Shown: positions 4,088-46,064 of the stretch, piece by piece | Layout of the letters: the number at the start of each line of letters is the position of its first letter | Numbering within the stretch: the stretch's first letter is position 1 | Assembly (NCBI GenBank): GCA_964359495.1 | Contig: CAYHTG010000003.1 | Location: forward strand, 1-46,064 | Length of the DNA: 46,064 nt | DNA from: an uncultured Candidatus Peribacteria bacterium | Lineage (GTDB): Bacteria > Patescibacteriota > Gracilibacteria > UBA1369 > 2-02-FULL-48-14 | Direction of reading: 5' to 3' | Notes under the pieces: generated by a model | What the model was told of the DNA's origin: nothing | Database searches by the model: none | Seen by the model: the letters and a program-made list of their open reading frames with translations, nothing else | Translations under genes and position numbers: made by a program

Positions 4088-4285
4088 TTATCCCTTCTTG
4101 AGCATAGGAAGTCCGGTGCGAGGATTTTCCGTCTTCACGTATCCTGCAGGAAGTGAATCGAGCGCATCGGCTTTTACCGTGCGAGCGAAGTAATAAATTT
4201 GTTGCTTGCGTCCTCCGCGAAGCGTAACCATCTTACCGTGAAGGTAGTAGGTTTGTCCTTTCTTGTTTTGGACTGTATATGCCAT
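4088..4285 (-). CDS. small conserved-looking hypothetical protein (65 aa)
   Basis: Clean ORF (MAYTVQNKKGQTYYLHGKMVTLRGG...) ending at the bidirectional terminator. No assignable family. Confidence 0.5.
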   Translation of the reverse strand: MAYTVQNKKGQTYYLHGKMVTLRGGRKQQIYYFARTVKADALDSLPAGYVKTENPRTGLPMLKKG

Positions 4286-5803: not shown

Positions 5804-6685
5804 ATGAAAATCTTTAAATTTCTGGCTCTGTTTACGCTCTTTGCCTTCTTGACCGGTTGTGGTTTTTTTAAGTCGGCGGAAGTTGGGTACCTCGATGAAT
5901 ATTCAACGGGTAGTTCCTACGAATATGATTATGATGATTTGATGGTTGAGAGTGAAAGCTCTTACACGGAGCGCAGTCTCAGCTCTGTTGTGGACGATGG
6001 TGGTTTTGTTGAAGGAGTGGAGCAAAAAATCATTCGAACGGGCGATTTGAGTTTGCATGTGGAAGATGTGCGCGAATCGGTGGAGGCCATTAGAGCTCTA
6101 GTGACGGGATGGGGAGGCGATGTGAGCGACTCCGAGGTGACGCGTTATGACACCTCCTACTACGGCTATTTAACTCTTCGTGTTCCTTCCGAGCAATTCG
6201 ACACCGCTATGCTTGCTCTCAAAGAGTTCGCCGTCTACGTGAATTCCGAATACACCAATGCTCAAAACATAACGGACACTTATATTGATATGCAGGCTCG
6301 CCTGGGAAATATGAAAGCCGAGGAGAAACAGTATTTAGATATTTTGGATCAAGCGGTGACCGTGGAGGAAATCCTTCTGGTGACCGATTATCTTTCTGCG
6401 GTTCGAGGCGAGATTGAAAGCACTGAAGCGCAACTCCAGTACTACGATTCGCAAGTGGACTATTCCACTATTAATTTAGCCCTAACCGAGGATGAAAGCA
6501 TCGCGGTGGCCAAAGAAAACTGGCGCCCGATAGGTACGATTAAAGATGCCCTCAGCGATTGGATTGTCTTCCTCCAAGGCTTCGTGGACTTTGGGATTTA
6601 CTTATTGATTTTCGGTTGGCCATTCGTACTCGTTTTGTGGGGCGTTTGGGTTTGGATTCGCAAGTGGAACAAAAAACGCAAGTAA
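5804..6685 (+). CDS. DUF4349-like lipoprotein with C-terminal membrane anchor
   Basis: Lipobox LTGC at residues 16-19. The segment KIIRTGDLSLHVEDVRESVEAIRALV, the coiled-coil middle and the C-terminal TM helix are typical of the DUF4349 family as I remember it. Confidence 0.7.
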   Translation: MKIFKFLALFTLFAFLTGCGFFKSAEVGYLDEYSTGSSYEYDYDDLMVESESSYTERSLSSVVDDGGFVEGVEQKIIRTGDLSLHVEDVRESVEAIRALVTGWGGDVSDSEVTRYDTSYYGYLTLRVPSEQFDTAMLALKEFAVYVNSEYTNAQNITDTYIDMQARLGNMKAEEKQYLDILDQAVTVEEILLVTDYLSAVRGEIESTEAQLQYYDSQVDYSTINLALTEDESIAVAKENWRPIGTIKDALSDWIVFLQGFVDFGIYLLIFGWPFVLVLWGVWVWIRKWNKKRK

Positions 6686-6692
6686 TTACTTT

Positions 6693-6789
6693 GAAACTCC
6701 ACTTTTCTTGGATCTAAGGGACGATTCTTCAGTACAGAACCAGACTTTGGTACTTCAGAATCCTCCCTTAGATCGAAAAGTGGAGTTTC
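6693..6789. repeat. palindromic hairpin element, copy A (97 nt)
   Basis: Arms GAAACTCCACTTTTC-(TTG bulge)-GATCTAAGGGA pair with TCCCTTAGATC-GAAAAGTGGAGTTTC. Inner stem GATTCTTCAGTAC/GTACTTCAGAATC pairs 11 of 13. Apical sequence CAGAACCAGACTTTGGT. Same architecture as 13685-13769. Confidence 0.75.
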
Positions 6790-7427
6790 AGACTTTCTTT
6801 GGGTTTTGTTTTTCCGGGCCACTGGCAGAGTTCGTAGAGTGGGCAGGCCCCGCATTTGGGCTTGTAGGCCGTGCAGGTTTTGCGGCCGTGAAAAATCAGT
6901 TGTAAATGAAGGCGTGACCAGTGTTCTTTGGGAATGGCTGCTTTCAGTTGGCGTTCGGTTTTGTCTCGGTTTGATCCGGAGTTGGCCAGGCCCAGGCGGT
7001 TTGCAACGCGATGGATATGCGTGTCCACAGGAAAAGCGGGCAGGCCAAACCATTGAGCTTGCACCACTTGGGCGGTTTTATTGCCTACGCCGGGCAGCGC
7101 CGTGAGACTTTCCAAGTCGGAGGGGACTTTACGGCCTTTCAGGGCTGAGGCAGAGCCAATTAGAGCTTTTGTTTTGCTATTAAAATAACCTGTGGGGCGA
7201 ATGATTTCACGCACGTTTTCTTCCCCCAAAGCAAGAATGTCTTCAGGCGTGCAAGGGCGGTCCTTCGGAAAGAGCTTGGGCGTTATGGTGTTCACGCGCG
7301 CATCCGTGCATTGAGCGGAAAGAATGGTGGAAACGAGCAGCTCAAAAGCATTGCGATGACGAAGAGAGGGCTCGGGACTAGGGAACTCCCGATCAAGGAT
7401 TACGAGCATACGTGCTTTCTTCAACAT
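6768..7427 (-). CDS. nth: endonuclease III (DNA glycosylase/AP lyase)
   Basis: HhH-GPD region LTALPGVGNKTAQVV, catalytic-region DTHIHRVANRLGL, and the C-terminal 4Fe-4S cluster loop CTAYKPKCGACPLYELC. The last 7 codons and the stop lie inside repeat copy A. Confidence 0.92.
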   Translation of the reverse strand: MLKKARMLVILDREFPSPEPSLRHRNAFELLVSTILSAQCTDARVNTITPKLFPKDRPCTPEDILALGEENVREIIRPTGYFNSKTKALIGSASALKGRKVPSDLESLTALPGVGNKTAQVVQAQWFGLPAFPVDTHIHRVANRLGLANSGSNRDKTERQLKAAIPKEHWSRLHLQLIFHGRKTCTAYKPKCGACPLYELCQWPGKTKPKESLKLHFSI

Positions 7428-11718: not shown

Positions 11719-13668
11719 ATGTATCTACAGCTTCAACAGGAATCTATTCTACTAGGACGCCGACCGGCTGGGTTCACGGAGCACTATTATACCGAGTGGG
11801 ACGATGGTCTTGGTAAAGAGAAAATCTCGCTCTTCCTCTTGATGTCGATTGGGAGCACGCAGGTGCCCGGGGCGGAAATCGGGAAAGAGGCTTTCCAGCT
11901 TTTACAGGATCATTTTTTGGATGATTTAGCTGGAGATCCTTACGATCGATTTGAGAATGCCCTTCGAGAAATCAACACCGTGGTGAGCCAAAAAGAAAAG
12001 GAACTCGACTTGAAATTTATCCCCAATATGAATGTGCTTATTGGAGTGATTCAAAAGGACATGCTTTTTTTGTCGCAACGGGGAGAGGCGCAGGGCTATT
12101 TGGTTCGTAAGCGGCACGTAAGTTCCATTACGGATGGCCTTTATGATGAAAAAAATAAAGAAGACTTGTTCCAAAATATTGCCAGTGGTGTTTTGGAGGT
12201 GGGCGACAGTACGGTTTTGGTTACGGGACCCTTGGTTCAATATGTGACTCCCAACGATCTTTCTAAAATTTTCTCCGAGCAAGCTCTTCGAGAAGCGGCC
12301 AAAGAATTGGAAGATTTGCTCCATAGTGATATTGAAGAGCAGATGAGCCTTGTTGCTTTTGAAGTTTTGGAGAAAACTGAAGAAATTGCGGCTGGAGCAG
12401 TGGCGGGCGTAGAAGTGGAGGGAGAGGAGGGGGAGGCTCCTGCTTACGCAGGAGTGGGCGATGCAGTGGAGAGAGAAAGTCGCTTCGGGAAAGGGCTCGC
12501 GGCGCTTCGTCAATTTGCAGCGCATGAAGACCGCTTTCAATTTTTTGCTAAGATTCGTGGCTGGGAGAAGAGAAAACTGCTTATGTCGATAGGAGCTTTG
12601 GTGCTTGTGCTGGTCGCGGGAGTTTTCATTTTGGAGGTGACGCTCGGCAAACAGCGCACCATTAATGAAATGCAAGAAAAACTCGAAACCGCGGAAAATA
12701 ACATTGCTCTCGCCGAAACCAAAGGTGCTTTCGATAAAGAAGAAGCCAATGTGCTTTTAAATTCGGCTGAAGATTTGGCTGTTGAGGTTATTAGTTCAGG
12801 CTATTTAGGAGGGGACGCCAGTCAAGTTTTAGATCTCATACAAGAACAACGCGATTACTTGGACAACGTTCAACACATCACCGATAATTTGAAACTGGTA
12901 GCCGATCTTAGTGGGAAACTCGCTGGAGCATCTCTCATTGGGGTACAGCCTTATGGCGATAGGATAGTGGCTTTCTCCGATCAAACGGCTTTTCAGATCC
13001 TGATCGATCAAGTGCAAGAGCCCGATACCGTGGACTCCACCGAACGCATTGTGACCGGTCGGTTCTTTGATGAATACGACAATATTATCTTCCTCACTCA
13101 GGCGGCCAAACTTATAGAATATAAGGATGGCAACAGCCAGTTCTCCGATACATCGGATGTGACTTGGCATAATGGCGTGGACGTGGCTACCTACTCGAAT
13201 AAGATCTATGTTCTCGATCCGATCTCAAATCAAATTTGGCGCTATGCACGAGGCACGGAAGCCTATGGGGCCGCTCAAGCTTACTTTTCCGGCGAAGTGG
13301 ATCTATCGAAAGCGATTTCTCTTGCCGTGGATGGGAGCATTTGGGTGCTGAGTAGCGGTGGCACGCTCTCGAAATACTTGAGCGGAGAGCTTGTGGAGTT
13401 TGTAATTAAAAAGGCTCCTTTGGAAGGGATTGTGGGAACGAGTCGTGTTTATACCGAGCTTGAGGTTAATCAAGTCTACCTCCTTGATCCTGCAAAAGAC
13501 CGTCTCTTTGTTTTTGATAAGAACTCGAAAGGCAACGACATCACCTACAACGTTCAGTATATTTTTGATGAGATTGAAGGCACCTTAGTAGACATGTTTG
13601 TCGACAAAGATCGCAACGTGATAGTGATTGCAACTACGAGTGCGGTTTATGAGCTTAGCTTTGAGTAA
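11719..13668 (+). CDS. large hypothetical bitopic protein: N-terminal PP2C-like(?) cytoplasmic domain, one TM helix, C-terminal beta-rich repeat domain
   Basis: 649-aa ORF. N-terminal third loosely PP2C/SpoIIE-like (VLIGVIQKDMLFLSQRGEAQGYLVR...STVLVTGPLVQYVTPNDL). TM helix LLMSIGALVLVLVAGVFILEV. The C-terminal ~250 aa has recurring hydrophobic-strand patterns (IYVLDP..NQIWRY; VYLLDPAKDRLFVF), suggesting a beta-propeller. Confidence 0.6.
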   Translation: MYLQLQQESILLGRRPAGFTEHYYTEWDDGLGKEKISLFLLMSIGSTQVPGAEIGKEAFQLLQDHFLDDLAGDPYDRFENALREINTVVSQKEKELDLKFIPNMNVLIGVIQKDMLFLSQRGEAQGYLVRKRHVSSITDGLYDEKNKEDLFQNIASGVLEVGDSTVLVTGPLVQYVTPNDLSKIFSEQALREAAKELEDLLHSDIEEQMSLVAFEVLEKTEEIAAGAVAGVEVEGEEGEAPAYAGVGDAVERESRFGKGLAALRQFAAHEDRFQFFAKIRGWEKRKLLMSIGALVLVLVAGVFILEVTLGKQRTINEMQEKLETAENNIALAETKGAFDKEEANVLLNSAEDLAVEVISSGYLGGDASQVLDLIQEQRDYLDNVQHITDNLKLVADLSGKLAGASLIGVQPYGDRIVAFSDQTAFQILIDQVQEPDTVDSTERIVTGRFFDEYDNIIFLTQAAKLIEYKDGNSQFSDTSDVTWHNGVDVATYSNKIYVLDPISNQIWRYARGTEAYGAAQAYFSGEVDLSKAISLAVDGSIWVLSSGGTLSKYLSGELVEFVIKKAPLEGIVGTSRVYTELEVNQVYLLDPAKDRLFVFDKNSKGNDITYNVQYIFDEIEGTLVDMFVDKDRNVIVIATTSAVYELSFE

Positions 13669-13684
13669 GGGAAACTCTGAAATG

Positions 13685-13769
13685 CTCCTTTTCTTTGGTC
13701 TAGGGGAGGCTTCTTCAACACAGAACCGGACTTTGGTGTTTCTGAACCCTCCCCTAGACCGAAAAGGAG
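13685..13769. repeat. palindromic hairpin element, copy B (85 nt core)
   Basis: CTCCTTTTC-(TTT bulge)-GGTCTAGGGGAGG pairs with CCTCCCCTAGACC-GAAAAGGAG. Apical CAGAACCGGACTTTGGT is nearly identical to copy A. Lies between the convergent 11719-13668 gene and ackA. Confidence 0.75.
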
Positions 13770-13786
13770 ATTCCTAAATTTCCATA

Positions 13787-13910
13787 AAGTGAAGGGGGAG
13801 AGGGAACTTAAAGAAAAGCACAAACAGGAAAGGAAGCGGAGGAAAAGATCATGTATCTTTTCCGGAGTGCTCCTGCTTTTCGTAAGTTCTCTCTTCCCTC
13901 TTGTTCACTT
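13787..13910. repeat. second long imperfect palindrome in the same intergenic region
   Basis: AAGTGAA...TTCACTT (outer 7 bp), GAGGGAACTTA/TAAGTTCTCTC (imperfect), GAAAAGCA/TGCTTTTC, GGAAAAGAT/ATCTTTTCC around the centre CATG (about 13850). Confidence 0.5.
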
Positions 13911-13921
13911 TCATGGGAATT

Positions 13922-15076
13922 TTAGAATTTCCTAAGATGTCGGGCCATGGCTTTTTCTTCATCGGTGGGGATGACAAAGACCTTTATTTTTGAGCCTTTT
14001 GTTGAAATGCTGACTTTGTTTCGACGGTTTGCGGTGCTGTCTAATTTAAGTCCGAAGGGTTTTAAATAATCGCAAATTTGTTGGCGAAGGTAGAAGGCGT
14101 TTTCTCCGATTCCCGCGGTGAAAACAAGGGCTTTTGGGGGGCCACCGAGGGGAATGAAGTAACTCGCGATGATCTTGGCCATTTGGTAGCTAAAAACGTC
14201 AAAAGTACGGAGGGTGCCGGGGGACTTTGGTTTTGCCCTCAGGCTGCGGACGTCTGAGCCGATTTCGGAAAGACCTTTAAAGCCGGATTCTTTTTCAAGA
14301 AGATGGTGAACGGCCTCGGGGCTTTTCTTTTTGAGAAGGTGGAAAATTATGGCCGGGTCTATGGTGCCTGAGCGAGTGCCCATAAGCGGTCCTTCCAGTG
14401 GGGTGAAACCCATGGAGGTATCGAGGGATTTTCCATTTTTTATGGCGGTGACGCTCACGCCGTTTCCTATGTGACAGGTGATGAGTGCGGTGCCTTTACT
14501 ATGGAGGATTTTTTGGGCTTCTTGAGCCACGTACTGATGACTGGTTCCGTGAAAGCCATAGCGGCGGATATGCTCCTTTTTGTAGAGCTCGTAGGGGAGA
14601 CCGTAGAGGAAAGCGCGAGGAGGAAGGCTGGCGTGAAAAGCCGTGTCAAAAATAGCCGTTTGTTTGGCGTGTGGGATTTGTTTAAGGCAAGCTTTGAGTG
14701 CCGCCAAATTGGCTGGATTGTGTGAGGGGGCAAGATCGGAAAGTTTCTCCAAATCTTTGAGGATGCGCGAAGTGATGAGGGTTGGTTTTATATATTTTTC
14801 ACCGCCATGCACCACGCGGTGCGCGACTTTTTTAATCTCTTGGATCGAGTGAATAGCGCGGTCTTGTTTAAGTCGATTGAGAGCGTAAGTAATGGCTGCT
14901 TTATGATCTTTAATTTTTATACTTGTTTTTTTCTCGCCGGTTTTTAAGTACTGTCGAAAATGACAGTGTTTTTGTCCAATGGCATCCACGTGTCCTTTGT
15001 AGAGGCGTTTCAAGTGCTCATCAAAAAGCGCAAATCGAAGGGAGGAAGAGCCGGCGTTGATTACGAGTATGGCCAT
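13922..15076 (-). CDS. ackA: acetate kinase
   Basis: N-terminal ILVINAGSSSLRFALFD, AHRVVHGG, FDTAFH, RRYGFHGTSH, ITCHIGNGVSV, GTRSGTIDP: the canonical AckA motifs. Confidence 0.93.
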   Translation of the reverse strand: MAILVINAGSSSLRFALFDEHLKRLYKGHVDAIGQKHCHFRQYLKTGEKKTSIKIKDHKAAITYALNRLKQDRAIHSIQEIKKVAHRVVHGGEKYIKPTLITSRILKDLEKLSDLAPSHNPANLAALKACLKQIPHAKQTAIFDTAFHASLPPRAFLYGLPYELYKKEHIRRYGFHGTSHQYVAQEAQKILHSKGTALITCHIGNGVSVTAIKNGKSLDTSMGFTPLEGPLMGTRSGTIDPAIIFHLLKKKSPEAVHHLLEKESGFKGLSEIGSDVRSLRAKPKSPGTLRTFDVFSYQMAKIIASYFIPLGGPPKALVFTAGIGENAFYLRQQICDYLKPFGLKLDSTANRRNKVSISTKGSKIKVFVIPTDEEKAMARHLRKF

Positions 15077-18904: not shown

Positions 18905-20166
18905 AACATGTTGTCATTTTAGGCGCCGGTGTAGCGGGCCTTGCTTGTACTCAAAAATTATCTGCGCGCGCGCCGGAACAACTGCGCATTACTCTTGTTG
19001 ATGAAAGTGATGTGCATGTACTTAAGGCTGATCTTTATGAAGTGGCTACGGCTTTCAACAAGGAAATCACCGAGGAATGTTTGGTGCGTTTAAAAGCGAC
19101 GGTCGCTACTCCTATTGCCAGCTTGGTGGATCCTGAGCGAGTGCAGTTTATTCAGGACTCAGTGCTTCGAATCGATCCCAAAAAGAAGGTCGTTTACTTA
19201 AAGGGAGGTGCGTCAGCAAAAGGCAAAAAAATCTTTTACGATATTCTTGTTGTCGCTCTGGGGAGCGTGACGAATTTTTTCAATATTCCCGGTATTGAAA
19301 AATCAGCCTACTCTCTCAAAACTGTGCGCGATGGACTTAAATTGAACTGTGCGTTGGACCATTTGTTTTTTGAACTTTACCAAAAAAAATCTCAACGGTC
19401 GGTCCATATTACCGTTGGTGGAGGAGGTTCAACCGGAGTGGAAATTGCTTGCGAGCTTCACACCTCTCTTACAAAGTTGTGTAGGAAATACCATTATCCT
19501 CGTTCGAAAGTCCATGTGCAGCTTATCCAAAATGGAAAAGAACTCGGTGGACTCGACCTCAATGGAAGTGTGCTTATCAAGGAAAGGCTTCAAAAACTTG
19601 GGGTTTGTTTATATTGTGATTATCACATCACAAAAGTTACCCCTGAAAAAGTGGAAATTTTGGATGCTCAGAAGGTAAGAAAAACGCTTCCGAGTGAGTT
19701 GCTTATTTGGACCGCCGGGGTTCGAGTTAATCCTCTGCTCGAAAATTTAGCCGATTCAAAGTCACAAGGAGCAATCCGCGTGAATAGCAGCCTTCAATCG
19801 GTTGGGCATGACCGCATTTTTGCTGCGGGTGATAATGCTTACCTTAGCAATCCGCGCCACAGCGGCTCGCGATTCCCAATGCTCGCCAGTGTTGCCAAGT
19901 TGCAAGGAGCTTTGGTGGCTGAAAACATCATTAGAATCATTAAGTCTCGACCCTTGCTTTCGTTTAAGCCGGGCTTTGAGTGGCTTTTACTTCCTCTCGG
20001 TGGAAAATTTGGTCTCTTCAAAGCGGGCCCCGTCCTTTTTACGGGATTTTTTGCTTGGCTCATTCGACGCTTTGTTATTTTGCGTTACCACCTTTCCATC
20101 CTTCCTTTTTTTAGGGCACTTCGAAAATGGCGGCTTTCGGAAAAGTTGTTTGTAAAGAATGACTAA
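18898..20166 (+). CDS. NAD(P)/FAD-dependent oxidoreductase, type II NADH dehydrogenase-like
   Basis: Two Rossmann dinucleotide motifs (VVILGAGVAGLA; ITVGGGGSTGVE), a GD motif (IFAAGDNA) and a C-terminal amphipathic/hydrophobic tail. Its start overlaps the xfp stop (ATGGTAA). Confidence 0.8.
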   Translation: MVKHVVILGAGVAGLACTQKLSARAPEQLRITLVDESDVHVLKADLYEVATAFNKEITEECLVRLKATVATPIASLVDPERVQFIQDSVLRIDPKKKVVYLKGGASAKGKKIFYDILVVALGSVTNFFNIPGIEKSAYSLKTVRDGLKLNCALDHLFFELYQKKSQRSVHITVGGGGSTGVEIACELHTSLTKLCRKYHYPRSKVHVQLIQNGKELGGLDLNGSVLIKERLQKLGVCLYCDYHITKVTPEKVEILDAQKVRKTLPSELLIWTAGVRVNPLLENLADSKSQGAIRVNSSLQSVGHDRIFAAGDNAYLSNPRHSGSRFPMLASVAKLQGALVAENIIRIIKSRPLLSFKPGFEWLLLPLGGKFGLFKAGPVLFTGFFAWLIRRFVILRYHLSILPFFRALRKWRLSEKLFVKND

Positions 20167-26021: not shown

Positions 26022-28700
26022 ATGAAAAAGCTTATCTCCTTACTCAGCCTGCCAATGCTGTTGGCGGTGCTACTTCCACAAGTGGCATTTGCCTATTCGG
26101 GTGTGAACCTGGCGAATGATGGGGTGGATGCTTACTATTACTGTAACAGTCTGTTCTGTCTCGCTATGAATGATACCACCGACGCAAAAGATGCCGGTAC
26201 GAATGATGTGAGCGTTCCTACGGATCTCAGCGATGCAATGTACTTTGGCTACCCTCAAATGTTTGAGGGTTTTGCCATTGACATTTATACTTCAGTGAGT
26301 GGTTACAGTTCTCTTGATCTTGGAATGGGAGAAGAAGGAAGATACGATATTGAATATTGGAATGGCTCTTCTTGGACTGAACTGGATGTAGAGGGGAATG
26401 AGAATACACTTGGTTACACGGATTATAACATTGAAGACGATTCTACAACAGGGGTCTTTGCTCTAACTTGGCAACGTCCTACCGACTGGGTGAAGTCAAC
26501 GGTTGGCAGTTCCTTTTCCATGTACTACGTACGAATGCATATTGTCGAAGAGTATTCCAGCGCCACTACCGCCACTGCTTCGCAAGTTGGAATTATTGAC
26601 TATAATTTGAAGCTTGAGGTGCTCGATGAGTTGGGTTATGCCATTGAAGGATTGGAGGAAGGGGATTTTACTCTGAGTGAAACTTCGGGTGGGGATGAGA
26701 CCATTTATTCTTTTGAAGAGCTTGGGGATGGACTCTATGGTTTTGCTGTCGACCCCTCTGCAGGCTCTGAGTACGAGCTTTCCATTGAGCCTTCCGGTTT
26801 TGTTGGAGAAGATCGCCAAGTAAGCCTGGATTTCGGCGAAACTCTCTATGATGATTTCGATATGGGATATAGCCATCTTTTGATGGCAGAGAATACAATA
26901 GGAACGGAAGTGGTCATTGAAGAGGCGACCGCCGGAGCGCCTCCGGTGGATTGTATTATTGACGGCGCAGAGGCCTACTGTGCGGTGGATATTGGTAATG
27001 ATGGTAGTGGAGCAGAGGCTTATGTGTATACGGATGGTTATGTAGCACTAACAGGGTCTATCACCAACCGAAACGCAGGGAACCTGTCTCAGGCTCAAGA
27101 AACCTATGTCTTACGCTATGGGTACATTGCAACTGTAAAAAATACGACTGGCAATTTGCTTTCTACGGCTACGGTAAAAGCCGGGGACGACCTGGATCTT
27201 ACGTGCGACTATATAGGTAGCGGCCAATACGGTTGCCCTATTTCTCTTTCTGATAGTGAGCCTTTGGTACAAATTTCTGCCACAGGTTATGACACTTCGG
27301 ACAGTGTGTTTAGTGGTGAACGTACGAGTGCAAGCTCCTCACAAGTGACCACTACCTTCCATTTGGAAGAAAGTGCCACGGAAGAACCGGATCCAACCGA
27401 TGATGGAACGGATACCGACGGAGAGGGTCTTACCGATGTAGAAGAAGCTGCCTTGGGAACGGATGAAACCGATGTAGATTCCGATAACGATGGCTTGGAG
27501 GATGACGAAGAGGTGGATCTGGGGACTGATCCTATGGATTCCGATTCCGATAGTGATGGAATTGATGATGGCGAAGAGGTAGATCTAGGAACTGACCCTA
27601 CCGATTCCGATACGGACAATGATGGGGAGAGCGATGGAGATGAAGTGGACGCCGGCACGGATCCTTTGGCAGACGAAGACGAAGTGATTGAAGAGGACAG
27701 TGACGGAGATGGATTGGATGATGATGATGAGGCTGACTTGGGAACGGATGAAACCGATGTGGATTCCGATAACGATGGTTTGGAGGATGGTGAAGAGGTA
27801 GACCTGGGGACTGATCCTATGGATTCCGATTCCGATAGTGATGGAATTGATGATGGCGAAGAGGTAGATCTAGGAACTGACCCTACCGATTCCGATACGG
27901 ACAATGATGGGGAGAGCGATGGAGATGAAGTGGACGCCGGCACGGATCCTTTGGCAGACGAAGACGAAGTGATTGAAGAGGACAGTGACGGAGATGGATT
28001 GGATGATGATGATGAGGCTGACTTGGGAACGGATGAAAACGATGTCGATACTGATGACGATGGAATTAGTGACGGGGCGGAAGTGGCTACCGATACCGAT
28101 CCACTCGACGAAGAAAATTTCCTGGCGGATGCCGAGGATTATGATGCCGATTGCAGTGACACTTTCACTGATACGGCTGGAAACTTTGCAGAAATTTCTA
28201 TTTGTATTTTGTACGATAATGACATTGTGAATGGAGCAACGGCAACTACTTATGAACCCAGTCGTGCTATCACTCGTGCTGAATTCTTAAAGATTGCTCT
28301 ACTCAATGCGGGGCTTACCGTCGTGGCTGATAGTGACGTGGACTATGATGATGTGGAATCCAGCGATTGGTACTACTCTTACATCACTTATGCTACCTCT
28401 GAAGGTTATGTGGAAGGGTATACAGATGGAATGTTCCATCCCAATGAAGAAATCAACCGTGCGGAGGCTATGATCATGATGATGCGCATCGCCGGTGTGG
28501 ATGATTACGATGTGGACGACAGTGATATCGATTTCAGTGATGTGGAATCCAGCGATTGGTACGCTTGGGCAATTGTGGAGGCCGATGAAAACGGTATCTC
28601 CGAAGGCTATAGCGATGGCACCTTTAAACCTGGCAACGACATCACTCGTGCGGAAGTTGCGGTGATCGCTCGCCGAACTTGGTATGTCTACTTTGAATAA
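26022..28700 (+). CDS. large secreted surface (S-layer-like) protein: N-terminal beta-rich region, thrombospondin type-3-like Ca-binding repeats, three C-terminal SLH domains
   Basis: Signal peptide [24 protein letters not shown]. Many D-x-D-x-D-G-x-x-D repeats ([36 protein letters not shown]). SLH motifs ([10 protein letters not shown]...[11 protein letters not shown]; [42 protein letters not shown]; [42 protein letters not shown]). Confidence 0.85.
27453..28022 (+). repeat. two near-identical tandem copies of a 285-bp (95-codon) unit inside the surface-protein gene
   Basis: CTTGGGAACGGATGAAACCGATGT... recurs at 27453, 27738 and (diverging after about 25 nt) 28023. The last ~225 nt of copies 1 and 2 look identical by eye, and the first ~60 nt carry a few substitutions (DDEE vs DGEE). 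Confidence 0.9.
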
Positions 28701-29010
28701 AGCGCCAGTATTTTCCAAACGGGAAATGACACATGAAATGGGAGAGAATGGGAGTGGGAAACATTTACGAGTTTGCAGCCAAACTGGCCGGAATGAGCAA
28801 AGAGTCTGTAGGTAAAGTAGCCACCATCGCCACCTCCGAAACAGATGGCGATTGGGCGGAAAGGATGGAAACCCTGTCTCAACCGGCCGCGCCAGCCTTT
28901 GTACAAAATTACAGAGTAAAAACCACTCTGCAGAGTGAAACTCAACCTGTAAAACCTGTAAAATACGCGAAGCGAAGCGTAACCGCTTAAAGCGGTACTA
29001 GGTTTTATTG

Positions 29011-29969: not shown

Positions 29970-30967
29970 TTACTGTTCGTTTATTTCTTCTGGTTTCAGT
30001 TGGCTGAGTCGATTAAAAGTCATGTGAAAAATTCCGCTCGTTCGCTCGGCACCTTCTTGGTCCAGATCCAGCCTTCCTTTCGCACGTCCAATTTCAATTC
30101 CATGTGGAACAAACTCCATACCAACCACATGGACTCCTTCACGCGGTCTTCCATACATGGCTGTGGTTCCGTGGTCACCTTTAAGCGGTCCTTCGCCATC
30201 TTCCACCTTATAGCCACGGTCTTCAAAATTGCTGCGAATAACTTCAAGGACCCGAGGTGCCGCCGCCAGACCGCCGTTGGAAATCATAATCAGGTCGGGA
30301 AGGCCGGTTCTTTCTTTTAAAGAGCCGCGTGCCATCTCTTCGCCCAAAACATAAGCGCCCGCGTACCTTCCTGTGTTCAATCTTCCCGGTCGATTTAATG
30401 GGAAAGTGTGAAGACTTAAAACAATGGCTGCTCCAAAACGATTTCGGGCTTGGTTGATGGCCGCAGCGAGTGCTCTTTGGTAGGGTTCTTGAACATGAGC
30501 CCGAATTTCAGCGAATTCTTCCCGAGTGTAGGGCCTGCTTAGAATATCCTCCATTTGCGCTTCCGCCGCTCTTGAACCTCTTCAGAGGAAGCGTTTAAAT
30601 TAATTCCTGTGGCTACCGTGCCCCTCCAAATCAAGCCATGTGCATGAGCGCCTTCGGGTGACCCTTCCACGGACAGCGCATCGACTTCTTCAGATGCACG
30701 ATTCAAATCCAAAAGTACTCGCGGAAAGGTGGTCCACACGCGAGCATCGTGAACTCTTTCGTGAAAACCTGTAATGAAAGGAACGGCATGATCAACCCCA
30801 AGGTTCAGTGTTCTTTGAACGGCTTCGCTCTTGAATCGGACAACTTCCAGGATGGCTTCAGGATAATGGTCAAAATCCTTCGGGTGAGGGATGGCGCTAT
30901 GAGGCATGTCCAGGATCAAGGGACTTTCTCCGGGTTCAAAGTTCACGAAAGGGAAGCGCTGATGCAT
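29970..30967 (-). pseudogene. N-formylglutamate amidohydrolase-family (FGase, PF05013-like) gene split into two overlapping ORFs by a frameshift
   Basis: The upstream ORF (30967-30539) carries LILDMPHSAIP and PRVLLDLNR. The downstream ORF (30554-29970) carries PYQRAL..., IVLSLHTF and VVGMEFVPHGIEIGR. Together they make one FGase-like domain. The ORFs overlap by 16 nt in different frames (AAATGGAGGATATTCTAAGC). Confidence 0.65.
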
Positions 30968-34077: not shown

Positions 34078-34380
34078 ATGAAAAAAAAACTTGCCCCAAT
34101 ACATCCCGGTGAGATCTTACTAGAAGAATTCTTGGAGCCTTTAGGGATTACTCAATATCGTTTGGCAAAAGACATCGGAGTGCCACCCAGGCGAATTAAT
34201 GAGATCGTTCATGGGGAAAGGAGTGTCTCAATAGATACTGCTTTACGATTGGCTCGTTACTTTAAAATGACTCCTCAATTTTGGATTAACGCCCAGTCAC
34301 ATTATGATCTTGAGCTGCAAAAAGATCTCCTCGAAGAACGTTTAGAAAAGGAAGTGAAGGTGCGTGATACAGTAGTCTAG
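34078..34380 (+). CDS. higA: HigA antitoxin (XRE-type HTH)
   Basis: IHPGEILLEEFLEPLGITQYRLAKDIGVPPRRINEIVHGERSVSIDTALRLARYF..TPQFWIN. Starts 4 nt after the higB stop. Confidence 0.85.
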   Translation: MKKKLAPIHPGEILLEEFLEPLGITQYRLAKDIGVPPRRINEIVHGERSVSIDTALRLARYFKMTPQFWINAQSHYDLELQKDLLEERLEKEVKVRDTVV

Positions 34381-35070: not shown

Positions 35071-35376
35071 ATGGTCAGGAAATATCTCTATCCGCCCATT
35101 CATCCCGGAAAAATTCTTCTTAAAGAGTTTATTCAGTGTTTTGGACTCAATCAAAATCGTTTAGCTCAAGACATCAGCGTAGCTCCCCGTCGCATCAATG
35201 AAATTGTTTTGGGCAAACGAGGCATTACGGCCGATACGGCTTTGAGACTCGCTCGTTACTTTGGAAATTCAGCCTTTTTTTGGATGGAGCTGCAAATTCG
35301 TTACGAACTTAAAAAAGCTAAAGAACTTTTGGGAGATCGTTTGGAGAAAGAGGTGAAAGTTTACCAAGCTTTTTAA
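35071..35376 (+). CDS. higA: HigA-family antitoxin paralogue with no adjacent toxin gene
   Basis: IHPGKILLKEFIQCFGLNQNRLAQDISVAPRRINEIVLGKRGITADTALRLARYFGNSAFFWM, roughly 55% identical by eye to the 34078 product. The long ORF-track extension (34774-35070) covers the promoter and repeat and is not credible as coding. Confidence 0.8.
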   Translation: MVRKYLYPPIHPGKILLKEFIQCFGLNQNRLAQDISVAPRRINEIVLGKRGITADTALRLARYFGNSAFFWMELQIRYELKKAKELLGDRLEKEVKVYQAF

Positions 35377-43324: not shown

Positions 43325-46064
43325 CTACACTTCGTTATGCGTGGTAGCCGGCTTGAGTTTCTTGCCTTCAAAAATGGCAATGAAATCTTCGCGGCTAAGG
43401 GTCTCTTTCTCGATGAGAGTTTTGGCAATGCGGTCAAGTTCCTTCTTATGTTTGGTGAGGGTTTCTTTAGCGAGTTTGTGGGCATTGTTCACAAAACCTT
43501 CCACTTCTTTGTCGATTTGCGCGGCTTTTTCTTCGGAGTAGTTTTTGGTGTGGCCGTAATCCCGGCCCAGGAAGACTTCATGGCTCTTTTCACCGAAAAC
43601 GGTGGGTCCCATCAGGTTGCTCATTCCGTATTCCGTCACCATGCGGCGGGCCATGCCGGACGCGCGTTCAAGGTCATTCGAAGGACCGGTGGAAACTTGG
43701 CCGTAGATCATTTCTTCCGCTACGTAACCGCCGAGTAGGGAAGCCATTTCATGTTCGAATTTTTCGCGAGTCACGAGGTGTTTGTCTTCATCGGGCACAA
43801 ACCAAGTGGAGCCCAGGGACATTCCACGCGAGATGATGGTGATTTTTCGCAGGGGATCGCATTCGGGGAGAAGATAGCCCACAATGGCATGACCGGTTTC
43901 ATGGTAAGCGGTGACCTCTTTTTCTTTTTTCGAAAGCACATGTGATTTACGTTCGGGTCCCATTTGAACTTTTTCCACGGACATTTCAATGTCGTGCTGC
44001 TTGATTTCTTTTTGGTTCATTTTAGCGGCCAAAATGGCGGCTTCGTTCATGAGGTTTTCCAAGTCGGCTCCGGAGAAGCCCGGCGTTTGTTTGGCGATTT
44101 GCCCCAGGTCTACATTTTTGGCAAGCGGCTTATTCTTGGCATGCACTTTCAGGATTTGCTCGCGGTCGTCAATACTGGGGCTGTCCACCACCACGCGACG
44201 GTCGAAACGACCGGGACGAAGCAGGGCGGGGTCCAGAACATCAGGGCGATTAGTATTGTGTAGCAAGAGAGGAGTTTGTCCTCCAAAAAAAGCTTCTTCT
44301 TGGCAACCACAAAAGTCATAGACATAATCGTTGTATGCTTTCTTTACAATTTTGCTGATTTTGAGGCGTTTAACGGTGGGAGTCGGACGATCAGGATTGA
44401 GCGGATTTTGACTCTTCCCAAAACCCAGTCGCCATGCTTTTGTTTCAGGTAAAGGATTCCCTCCGGCAATTCTTCTACCGGCGGGTACAATCCAGCTCCA
44501 TAGGTTTGATTTATAGCCCTGCATGCGTGACAGCCAGTTTAGTTCAAGGAGTAATTGGTAACTGACCGACGTGAGTTCAATGCGGCCTCGTTTGTCTTCG
44601 TGTCCATCTCCGTAAAAATATCCGCGAAAAAATTCAATAAAGTATTCTTGAGGTGCTTCAAACAGGAAGTTTGGAAGATGTTTTTGGTGGGCTCCCTTTC
44701 CACATTGCCGGATAAAAAATTCCGCAAGAGGTTTGCAGTGGTAAACGAGATTCACGGCATGAGGAGTTTGGTGACGAATTTCATCCGGCTCCAAGCCGAA
44801 AATAGTTTGCATGAGCGTTTTCACTTCTTCTATGTAAAATGTTTCTTTTTCGTTAAAGCAAAAATCCACTTCTTTTCGAGCGTAGCCCTCTGCCGTATAG
44901 TAGCCGAGTAGTCGACACAAATCGGGGCTGACTTGTACTTCTTCAGGGAGTGAGTGTTTAAAGTAAGCTCGAGAAGCTATGCGAGGTCGTCGATCCGTGT
45001 TTTGCCATTTTGATACCGTCGTTTGAGTAACTCCAACCAGAACGCCCACTTCTTTCTGACTTAATACGTCTTGATGGGCACGCACAAAATGATATTGGGC
45101 TTCTTCCCATAAATGTTCATTATAAACGGGCAGTATACGCTGGAATTTTTGACTAAATTGGTGAGCCCGGACTTCTCGTTTAGCGGAAGTTCGATTGGCG
45201 ATGTAAGGGACTTCCACTAGATATTCGCCGATTTTGAGCTTATCCACACGTTTGGCTTGCAGTCCTTGTTGGTTACGAATAAATACCGAATGGTTGCCTG
45301 TTGTGCGAAGCAAGCCTCCTTTGTGATGGATTTCATAAATTTCGTCGACTTTATGCCGGAATACACTGCGGACTTTTTTAAAAGCACTGCCTCCAAAGAA
45401 AACTTTGGTTCGCTTTTTTGTTTTTTTACGATACTTGGGCTGAAGACCGAGAACTTCAAGGTCGGGGCATAATTTTTCCATATTTTCCTCTCCTTCTTCA
45501 TAGTATGCATCAATGACTTCGGCAATTGGTTTCAATGCGTGGGTCCCATTTTCACGAACGAGCACCGGAGTATCTCCCGTGACGCTTGCTGCCATCACAA
45601 TCACATTTGTATTGGTTTCAAAACCGTCCATTTCGGTGAGGATTTGGTTCAGGGTCTGTTCCCTTTCGTCATGTCCTCCGCCGAGTCCCGTTCCTCGTTG
45701 GCGGCCCACGGCATCAATTTCATCAATGAAGACAATGCAGGGTGCATTGCGTTTGGCTTTTTTAAAGAGATCACGCACACGGCTGGCTCCCACTCCCACA
45801 AACATTTCCACAAACTCCGATCCGCTAATAGAGAAAAAGGGAACATTCGCTTCGCCGGCCACCGCGCGAGCGAGCAGCGTTTTTCCCGTGCCCGGGGCTC
45901 CCACGAGCATCACTCCTTTGGGAATTTTGGCGCCCATCGCCGTATACTTGGTGGGATTTTTCAAGAAATCTACAATCTCCACGAGTTCTTCTTTAGCTTC
46001 TTTCACACCGGCCACATCCGCAAAGGTCGTGCGTTCCTTCTCTTTGTCGTGCAAGCGGGCTGTC
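43325..46064 (-). CDS. ftsH: ATP-dependent zinc metalloprotease FtsH, 5'-truncated by the window edge and interrupted in-frame by an intein
   Basis: Walker [19 protein letters not shown], Walker [15 protein letters not shown] region [19 protein letters not shown], and the protease motif HETGHAIVG (HEXXH). The ORF is open to position 46064 (the track's M at 46054 is an internal TTG/Leu). Confidence 0.93.
44255..45586 (-). mobile_element. intein (444 aa) with a LAGLIDADG-type homing endonuclease domain, inserted at the FtsH sensor-1 motif
   Basis: Junctions are ...VIVMAA|[10 protein letters not shown]... and ...[10 protein letters not shown]|TNRPD.... Block B RTTGNH (TxxH). LAGLIDADG-like [10 protein letters not shown] and [10 protein letters not shown]. 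Terminal HN followed by a +1 Thr. Excision restores the canonical AATNRPD. Confidence 0.88.

Follow-up and report, generated by a model that had tools for sequence, protein, structure and literature searches.

At positions 13685-13769 of the 46,064-nt stretch of DNA analysed here (the window), a long palindrome forms a hairpin that has a second copy elsewhere in the window, and some of the differences between the two copies are matched between their arms. This raises the question of what has kept the arms complementary, a structured RNA of use to the host or the propagation of a mobile palindrome. An initial annotation, made from the DNA alone, had favoured selection on the folded structure.

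Concerning the origin of the window, its YidC protein is 82% identical to that of Peregrinibacteria RIFCSPLOWO2_02_FULL_48, and the other matches are to Peregrinibacteria, Gracilibacteria and Patescibacteria. A Hainich groundwater contig (L066) encodes an identical DUF4349 protein and is 99.9% identical to the window. A cyanobacterial origin, prompted by SLH domains, was dropped, as the window contains zero copies of HIP1 (GCGATCGC) and YidC points to Peregrinibacteria.

Two copies of a long hairpin in the window

The hairpin at 13685-13769 (copy B) reads CTCCTTTTC-TTT-GGTCTAGGGGAGG...CCTCCCCTAGACC-GAAAAGGAG, and its homologue lies at 6699-6783 (copy A). A repeat finder paired 6688-6780 with 13674-13766 at 80% identity over 93 nt, and listed each copy as an inverted repeat with a 14-nt centre. 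Folding gave a single long hairpin of about 41 bp in each, 55-60% of whose pairs are A-T. In copy A it spans 6692-6790 (unstranded; inverted repeats I1 and I6), with stems of 16, 11, 6, 5 and 3 bp, a 3-nt TTG bulge and the loop CCAGAC; in copy B the fold coincides with inverted repeat I2 (13685-13769, unstranded). The predicted Delta-G on the + strand was −54.1 kcal/mol for copy A and −47.4 kcal/mol for copy B (z = −9.0 and −6.5, respectively). Dinucleotide shuffles averaged −22 and −26 kcal/mol, and 0 of 200 folded as well. The − strand of both copies folds as strongly as the + strand. The repeat finder and the folding thus bear out the hairpin and its second copy as initially annotated, and what had been said of the outer stem, the lower stem, the TTG/TTT bulge and the apical loop is correct in every detail. 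The window contains the loop motif ACAGAACCRGACTTTGGT twice, where 0.1 occurrences would be expected.

The homology extends beyond the hairpin to about 120-125 nt (13670-13789 when compared with a third copy, copy C, described below). As a whole inserted element, copy A comprises about 123 nt (6686-6808, +), as judged from a covariance model match at 6686-6797 (131 bits) and from alignment to the empty site of the closest relative, which places the insert between ...AAGTA and GTTTTTCCGGG. Copy B (13670-13795, +; model match at 13672-13783, 122 bits) starts 1-2 nt past the TAA stop of a 649-aa ORF. The copies are 123-125 nt in size, and one reading frame is open throughout the element. When the translated copies were used as queries, with the aim of finding spurious ORFs called over other copies, 0 homologues were found among 5.8 billion proteins.

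Copy A is flanked by a DUF4349 gene (5804-6685, +) and the endonuclease III gene nth (6768-7427, −), and copy B by the 649-aa ORF (11719-13668, +) and the acetate kinase gene ackA (13922-15076, −). Both pairs are convergent, and the same is true of the genes around copy C. Both copies had been described as sitting exactly between convergent genes; this is where they lie, except that nth terminates inside copy A. The right arm of copy A supplies the last ~10 codons and the TAA stop of nth (6768-6800, −), as found by comparing protein ends (Pfam HhH-GPD): the product ends with ...CQWPGKTKPKESLKLHFSI in the window versus ...CPWPGKNKY in a relative (L180).

Three other convergent pairs in the window overlap by exactly 4 nt and share their stops (CTAA at 20163-20166, CTAG at 34377-34380 and TTAA at 35373-35376). 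These sites are of the same type as the target of copy C, and all three are unoccupied. A 310-nt gap between the convergent genes for an SLH protein and an Exo_endo_phos nuclease (28701-29010) is unusually long for this DNA and moderately structured (z −2.95), and gave no match to the element model.

Several further features of the window were observed. An FtsH-like AAA protease of 909 aa (43325-46054, −) carries in its ATPase part an intein with a LAGLIDADG homing-endonuclease domain (Pfam Intein_splicing, LAGLIDADG_3). A homologue of N-formylglutamate amidohydrolase (29970-30967, −) is divided between two ORFs that overlap (30539-30967 and 29970-30554) and correspond to the N- and C-terminal halves of the profile; a frameshift, pseudogene formation or an error of assembly could account for this. 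The gene of an 892-aa surface protein with SLH and TSP3 repeats (26022-28700) includes a tandem duplication (27410-27979) of a 285-nt unit, 93% identical. Upstream of tRNA-Glu, the segment 4088-4391 is 83-87% identical to relatives (L180 8182-8478, L191 15811-16109) versus 70-75% for neighbouring genes. A 65-aa ORF (4088-4285, −) lies within it, the gene calls of the relatives at this position are 65 or 81 aa, and a conserved small protein gene may be the reason for the conservation.

A third copy in another species

A third copy was found downstream of rplA in a different species, Peregrinibacteria RIFCSPLOWO2_02_FULL_48_14, to which the host was assigned by a 100% match of its L1 protein, and which is also the source of the 82% YidC match to the window. 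Ten assemblies contain copy C, which shares 85% identity with copy B over 120 nt (window 13670-13789) and 84% with copy A over 93 nt. Its neighbours are unlike those in the window: nusG, rplK and rplA lie upstream, and a convergent ORF of 220-233 aa downstream. The genome of the window and that of the copy C host are about 75% identical in alignable, mostly coding DNA, while the elements are 80-85% identical. This higher similarity between species would also fit purifying selection for a host function. The loop, which had been called conserved, is indeed the same in A, B and C save for one R position, but a strain variant at locus C has CGGAACC in place of CCAGAC.

The loop motif ACAGAACCNGACTTTGGT was used to search for further copies. 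Among 185,579 GTDB species genomes there were 65 matches, all of them chance occurrences or the acyl-CoA dehydrogenase coding motif LTEPDFG, with no flanking arms. Metagenome contigs gave 113 matches, of which 2 were genuine (L069, L133), both at one locus, that of copy C. Loop-based scans under-sample the family, since variant loops such as CGGAACC escape the pattern. In viral contigs, patterns made of a loop-tolerant core and the terminal motif matched 35 loci, none fitting the covariance model. This model (R1), built from A, B and C, detected no copies beyond these three in the window, in about 130 kb of syntenic loci of relatives or in 80 kb around the rplA genes of relatives, and no match to it was found in 316 kb of viral contigs or in unrelated metagenome DNA totalling 637 kb. 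The copies in hand are therefore 2 in the 46 kb of the window genome and at least 1 in another species.

In the copy C host, a PIN-domain gene and an 80-aa partner, a toxin-antitoxin-like pair, lie between the genes for dUTPase and thymidylate kinase (L193 4533-5149); the pair is missing from a 94%-identical strain (L243 3984-4003).

The three loci are empty in related genomes

The initial annotation had held that compensated changes speak against a MITE. Comparison of filled and empty sites does not support this objection. At locus A the element is missing from the closest relative (L190, GCA_964365625.1), which is 78.6% identical to the window in nucleotide sequence, and also from L180-L189 and L191. 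In L190 the stop of the DUF4349 gene directly precedes the sequence equivalent to window position 6809 onward, the window being about 123 bases longer. The gap between the two genes is 16 nt in the RIFCSPLOWO2 species (L180-L189) and 36 nt in the 70%-identical L191. Locus B is empty in L191, where 17 nt separate the 649-aa ORF from ackA, compared with 253 nt in the window. Five lineages (L202/L203, L204, L240, L241 and L242) have no insert at locus C, and in these rplA overlaps or abuts the convergent gene. Related genomes thus lack the insert at each of the three loci, and the element is a mobile insertion.

The boundaries are clearest at locus C. The empty site, in L202 and L204, the two that were read, is gcgcTTTAGtc, in which TAG ends rplA and the opposite-strand TTA ends the convergent gene. 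The filled site is gcgcTTTAG-GAAACTCTGAAATTCC...CCCATGAAGAGTTTC-TTTTAGtcg, and the element has the termini GAAACTCT...AGAGTTTC. TTTAG, present once in the empty sites, is found twice around the insert and represents a target-site duplication, which leaves each gene a stop codon. The termini of copy C form a perfect 8-bp inverted repeat (GAAACTCT/AGAGTTTC) flush with the duplication, and the two features together identify a MITE-like mobile element. A target duplication is clear only at C; a 4-bp TAAG plausibly flanks copy B together with the palindrome H2 described below, and none is recognisable at A, whose ends are degenerate.

A second palindrome shares the terminal motif

Copy B is not alone in the gap before ackA. 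A second and different long palindrome, H2 (13766-13934, unstranded; predicted fold −81.6 kcal/mol on the + strand and −63.7 kcal/mol on the − strand, 66 pairs), abuts or overlaps copy B, and between them the two occupy all 253 nt that separate the 649-aa ORF from ackA. The terminal motif of the A/B/C family also delimits H2, whose right end, read as its reverse complement TTAGGAAATTCTAAAATTCC, agrees with the left end and flank of copy C at 18 of 20 positions. The right terminus of H2 contributes the stop of ackA and its last two codons, and the acetate kinase ends with ...MARHLRKF* in the window versus ...MAREIR* in L191. The interior of H2 had no other copy in any locus compared. B and H2 may be a composite or nested element pair.

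The terminal motif itself is a 17-nt pattern, GGAAAYTCTRAAATTCC, that recurs at four element ends in the window. It is found at the left end of copy B, in the right arm of copy A, at both ends of copy C and at the far end of H2. The pattern has 6 matches in the window versus 1.06 expected. The copy B left end (GGAAACTCTGAAATGCT, 13670-13686, +) has 2 mismatches, the H2 right end (GGAAATTCTAAAATTCC, 13916-13932, −), which contains the ackA stop at 13922-13924, is an exact match, and the site in the right arm of copy A (AGAAAGTCTGAAACTCC, 6782-6798, −) is degenerate, with 3 mismatches. No further convincing site turned up in 147 kb of Peregrinibacteria DNA, nor did the window or about 147 kb of related DNA yield a transposase or an autonomous element with the same termini.

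Comparison with terminators, RNA families and REP elements

A host-beneficial structured RNA, such as a bidirectional terminator, an mRNA stabiliser or a site for an RNase or other protein, whose fold was selected and so gave rise to the compensation, is the first reading to weigh. [quoted passage not shown] On the other hand, sister lineages do without the element at all three loci. An intrinsic (Rho-independent) terminator was rejected: there is no short G+C-rich stem-loop followed by a U tract, and a promoter/terminator consensus scan found no site at either window copy on either strand. A T-rich tail is present in copy A only, B and C being without one. Nor do the elements belong to an Rfam family: at the gathering threshold of Rfam 15 the window yielded only RNase P RNA and tRNA-Glu, and in E-value mode the elements matched just generic miRNA-precursor hairpins, at 14-34 bits versus thresholds of 60-230.

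REP sequences are defined as palindromic units of 20-40 bp that carry GTAG or CGTC as an unpaired tag (PMC3733652). The initial annotation had likened the hairpins to REP/BIME elements or bidirectional terminators. The resemblance to REP and MITE repeats is apt, but REP size, tags and lack of duplication do not apply, and the terminator scan was negative. None of A, B and C contains GTAG, CTAC or CGTC; GACG is found in A only. Membership in the REP/REPIN class was thus rejected, the hairpin being a single unit of about 100 nt, untagged, with a TTTAG target duplication at C.

A search for a co-occurring RAYT had further been proposed; Pfam revealed no RAYT or Y1 transposase among 44 ORFs, essentially all of those in the window, and the sole recombinase is an XerC/D-type gene (755-1567), which relatives also carry. 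An element of the REP/REPIN type, moved by a RAYT (an IS200/IS605-like tyrosine transposase) in the form of single-stranded hairpin DNA, would share with many REPs a long hairpin between convergent genes (PMC3733652, PMC3184786), and a structure-dependent transposase would account for the upkeep of the stem. Taking into account the 5-bp target duplication flanking copy C, a unit of about 125 nt rather than 20-40 nt, the missing GTAG or CGTC tag and a window devoid of Y1 transposases, we regard this origin as very improbable. To our knowledge, no target duplication has been reported for insertions of the IS200/IS605 type.

The arms of the hairpin covary

Over the 42-pair structure, eight pairs are changed at both positions between copies A and B, six of them still paired and two broken, and six further pairs are changed on one side. 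The eight double changes compare with 2.8 expected (permutation p ~1e-4). Only four compensated changes had been recognised before; the actual number is six, AGTAC/GTACT versus AACAC/GTGTT beside the loop having been overlooked. When A, B, C and two strain variants of C were considered together, 7 of the 42 pairs were double-changed. Shuffles gave 1.9±1.1 such pairs, with 0 of 500 reaching seven, and structures slid by 1-3 columns gave 0-2. The seven comprise six transition pairs and one transversion pair. These results show that the arms do not evolve independently. The covariation anticipated in the initial annotation is therefore present, but it does not by itself show selection on a host RNA, as the copies are paralogues.

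A, B and C are found at different loci in two species, and so the compensated differences among them arose in the history of the source element. Copy A was inserted after the split from the 78.6%-identical relative, yet it differs from B by 20%, which means that most of the A-B differences predate the insertion. The compensated differences among the three copies are no demonstration of selection acting on a resident RNA.

Watson-Crick pairs make up nearly all of the stem. The non-standard pairs showed no consistent strand asymmetry, with G-U and A-C cases on both strands, which counts against selection on a host RNA. This mostly Watson-Crick, strand-neutral pattern fits maintenance at the level of DNA at least as well as selection at the level of RNA.

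Mutation alone, with no selection, could also be at work: template switching or mismatch correction in a hairpin or cruciform would copy one arm onto the other, any one-arm change being either undone or matched on the opposite arm in one event. Template switching in hairpins is documented and yields multibase compensatory changes in a single step (PMC8794818). Consistent with such copying of DNA, the stem pairs are Watson-Crick bar a few mismatches and not G-U, and the adjacent pairs 47/69 and 48/68 changed together in one lineage. The process would not be efficient, since mismatches and bulges persist: A-C at 9/104 and 10/103 is common to B and C, and the 3-nt bulge is found in all copies. 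With three paralogues, moreover, mutation alone is inseparable from selection. We take it to be possible as the sole cause, though on the doubtful side.

Variation and hairpin loss at locus C

Locus C is the one at which the same locus could be compared among several strains, over a shallow time depth. Two stem changes were found there, both single and uncompensated. In one variant, a lone T>C in the right arm produces an A-C mismatch (+ strand); in the other, a lone C>T produces G-U (+ strand) and is accompanied by the loop change CCAGAC to CGGAACC. The altered loop occurs in three assemblies.

In a strain 94% identical in the flanks (L243), only 29 nt are left between the two TTTAG copies (L243 2825-2853, corresponding to the copy C site at L193 3256-3380). 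These 29 nt are the exact reverse complement of the first 17 plus the last 12 bases of copy C. This arrangement implies that the hairpin was deleted between short direct repeats and the remainder inverted between the 8-bp terminal repeats. The inversion of the remnant between 8-bp inverted repeats is a hairpin-associated type of change, and in this respect agrees with the mutational account.

Nothing indicates that the hairpin is protected where it resides, and some of the evidence points to its being dispensable. The selection on the folded structure proposed at the outset thus meets, at locus C, with uncompensated changes and with a strain that has no hairpin. With the copies being paralogous, same-locus changes uncompensated and the hairpin lost in one strain, the data do not demonstrate selection on a host RNA. 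The co-varying arms are what such an RNA would predict, but its deletion from a close strain at rplA, the uncompensated same-locus changes, the loop altered in three assemblies and, as noted above, the absence of a U tract in a simple terminator scan lead us to consider it unlikely.

Discussion

We consider it probable that each hairpin represents a copy of a palindromic, MITE-like mobile element that is non-autonomous and resides in Candidatus Peregrinibacteria, members of the CPR; this reading is founded on three loci and the related H2. The element comprises about 125 nt that end with GGAAAYTCTRAAATTCC, with almost the whole interior forming one hairpin of about 41 bp, and would generate a 4-5 bp target duplication. 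Its copies lie immediately past stop codons, where convergent genes meet or overlap. At C the stops of both genes are restored by the duplicated TTTAG, while at A, and at H2 beside B, the neighbouring gene has been extended by a few codons and now ends inside the element. The bias towards convergent junctions may reflect a preference for T/A-rich, stop-like targets (TTTAG, TAAG); alternatively, with 4-nt overlaps being common, perhaps only those insertions that regenerate stops survive.

Copies A, B and C probably descend from different source copies, and their compensated differences would record how the complementarity of the arms was upheld over the long term as the element's lineage propagated. 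A DDE transposase requires the termini only, and such an enzyme alone would leave the complementarity of the whole interior unexplained. Presumably, either folded or symmetric DNA is required for mobilisation, or one arm is corrected on the other through template switching or repair, or both. Maintenance of the hairpin is more likely to be tied to propagation of the element or to arm-to-arm templated repair than to a host RNA. From the features of the copies we can only infer the type of transposase and the effect on neighbouring transcripts. If transcribed as a 3' UTR, the hairpin would form part of each of the two convergent mRNAs and could stabilise or terminate them, an effect that would probably be incidental.

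A mobile 3'-end cassette would combine mobility with selection for the RNA fold. It would have spread, possibly between Peregrinibacteria of different continents, into overlapping convergent junctions, supplying stops and a shared insulating or terminating hairpin. We give this proposal little credence. If it were true, the identity of 80-85% in the elements versus about 75% in the genomes would reflect function rather than recent transfer, and the hairpins would serve CPR genomes that are otherwise without recognisable terminators.

Palindromic MITE- and REP-like repeats, a bias for convergent junctions and compensated stems are all already well known. The cleanest analogue of the Peregrinibacteria element is bcr1, together with the group A repeats, of the Bacillus cereus group, MITE-like, non-coding and dispersed repeats of about 100-155 nt with 5-bp direct repeats; the likeness is one of description, and sequence similarity is not expected. 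In Bacillus cereus, bcr1 is flanked by 5-bp direct repeats, its distribution is not conserved between strains, and it has a stable predicted fold with compensatory changes, structural stability being lost in some copies (PMC3184786). The element described here differs in its phylum, the CPR, in its target at stop-codon junctions (TTTAG/TAAG) and in its very low sampled copy number; for bcr1, transcription has been shown experimentally.

In MITE-type size, palindromy over the whole length, inverted termini and short target duplication, the element also resembles Correia/CREE of Neisseria, ERIC/IRU of enterobacteria and RUP of Streptococcus pneumoniae. These are intergenic repeats of about 100-150 nt, often co-transcribed as hairpin RNA, that show insertion polymorphism between strains (partly PMC3184786). 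They occur in tens to hundreds of copies per genome, in contrast to the 3-4 in hand here, and differ in termini and target; RUP at least has a proposed cognate IS, whereas we know of none for the Peregrinibacteria element. REP, BIME and REPIN sequences are likewise palindromic, extragenic and enriched at convergent junctions, and their stems, kept by paired changes, are thought to act on mRNA 3' ends (PMC3733652, PMC3184786). Their units, however, are 20-40 bp, tagged with GTAG/CGTC and linked to RAYTs, in contrast to an untagged element of about 125 nt with a target duplication and inverted termini at C. SPRITE and other terminator-like repeats differ in having a short G+C-rich stem with a T run behind it, a feature that the element lacks; the scan for terminators was null at A and B. 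A literature search found no description of MITE-like repeats in CPR bacteria, Peregrinibacteria included.

The results call for caution in the discovery of RNA motifs. The copies are paralogues of a mobile element, and processes at the level of DNA can keep arms complementary, so that covariation alone does not show a functional RNA; among paralogous palindromic repeats it is weak evidence for one. The family is common to lineages from German and Colorado aquifers, with an identity above that of their genes, and its filled, empty and remnant sites mark structural variation at the level of strains. CPR bacteria have very small, densely packed genomes. An element that lands exactly on overlapping stop codons and regenerates both shows how mobile DNA can persist in such genomes.
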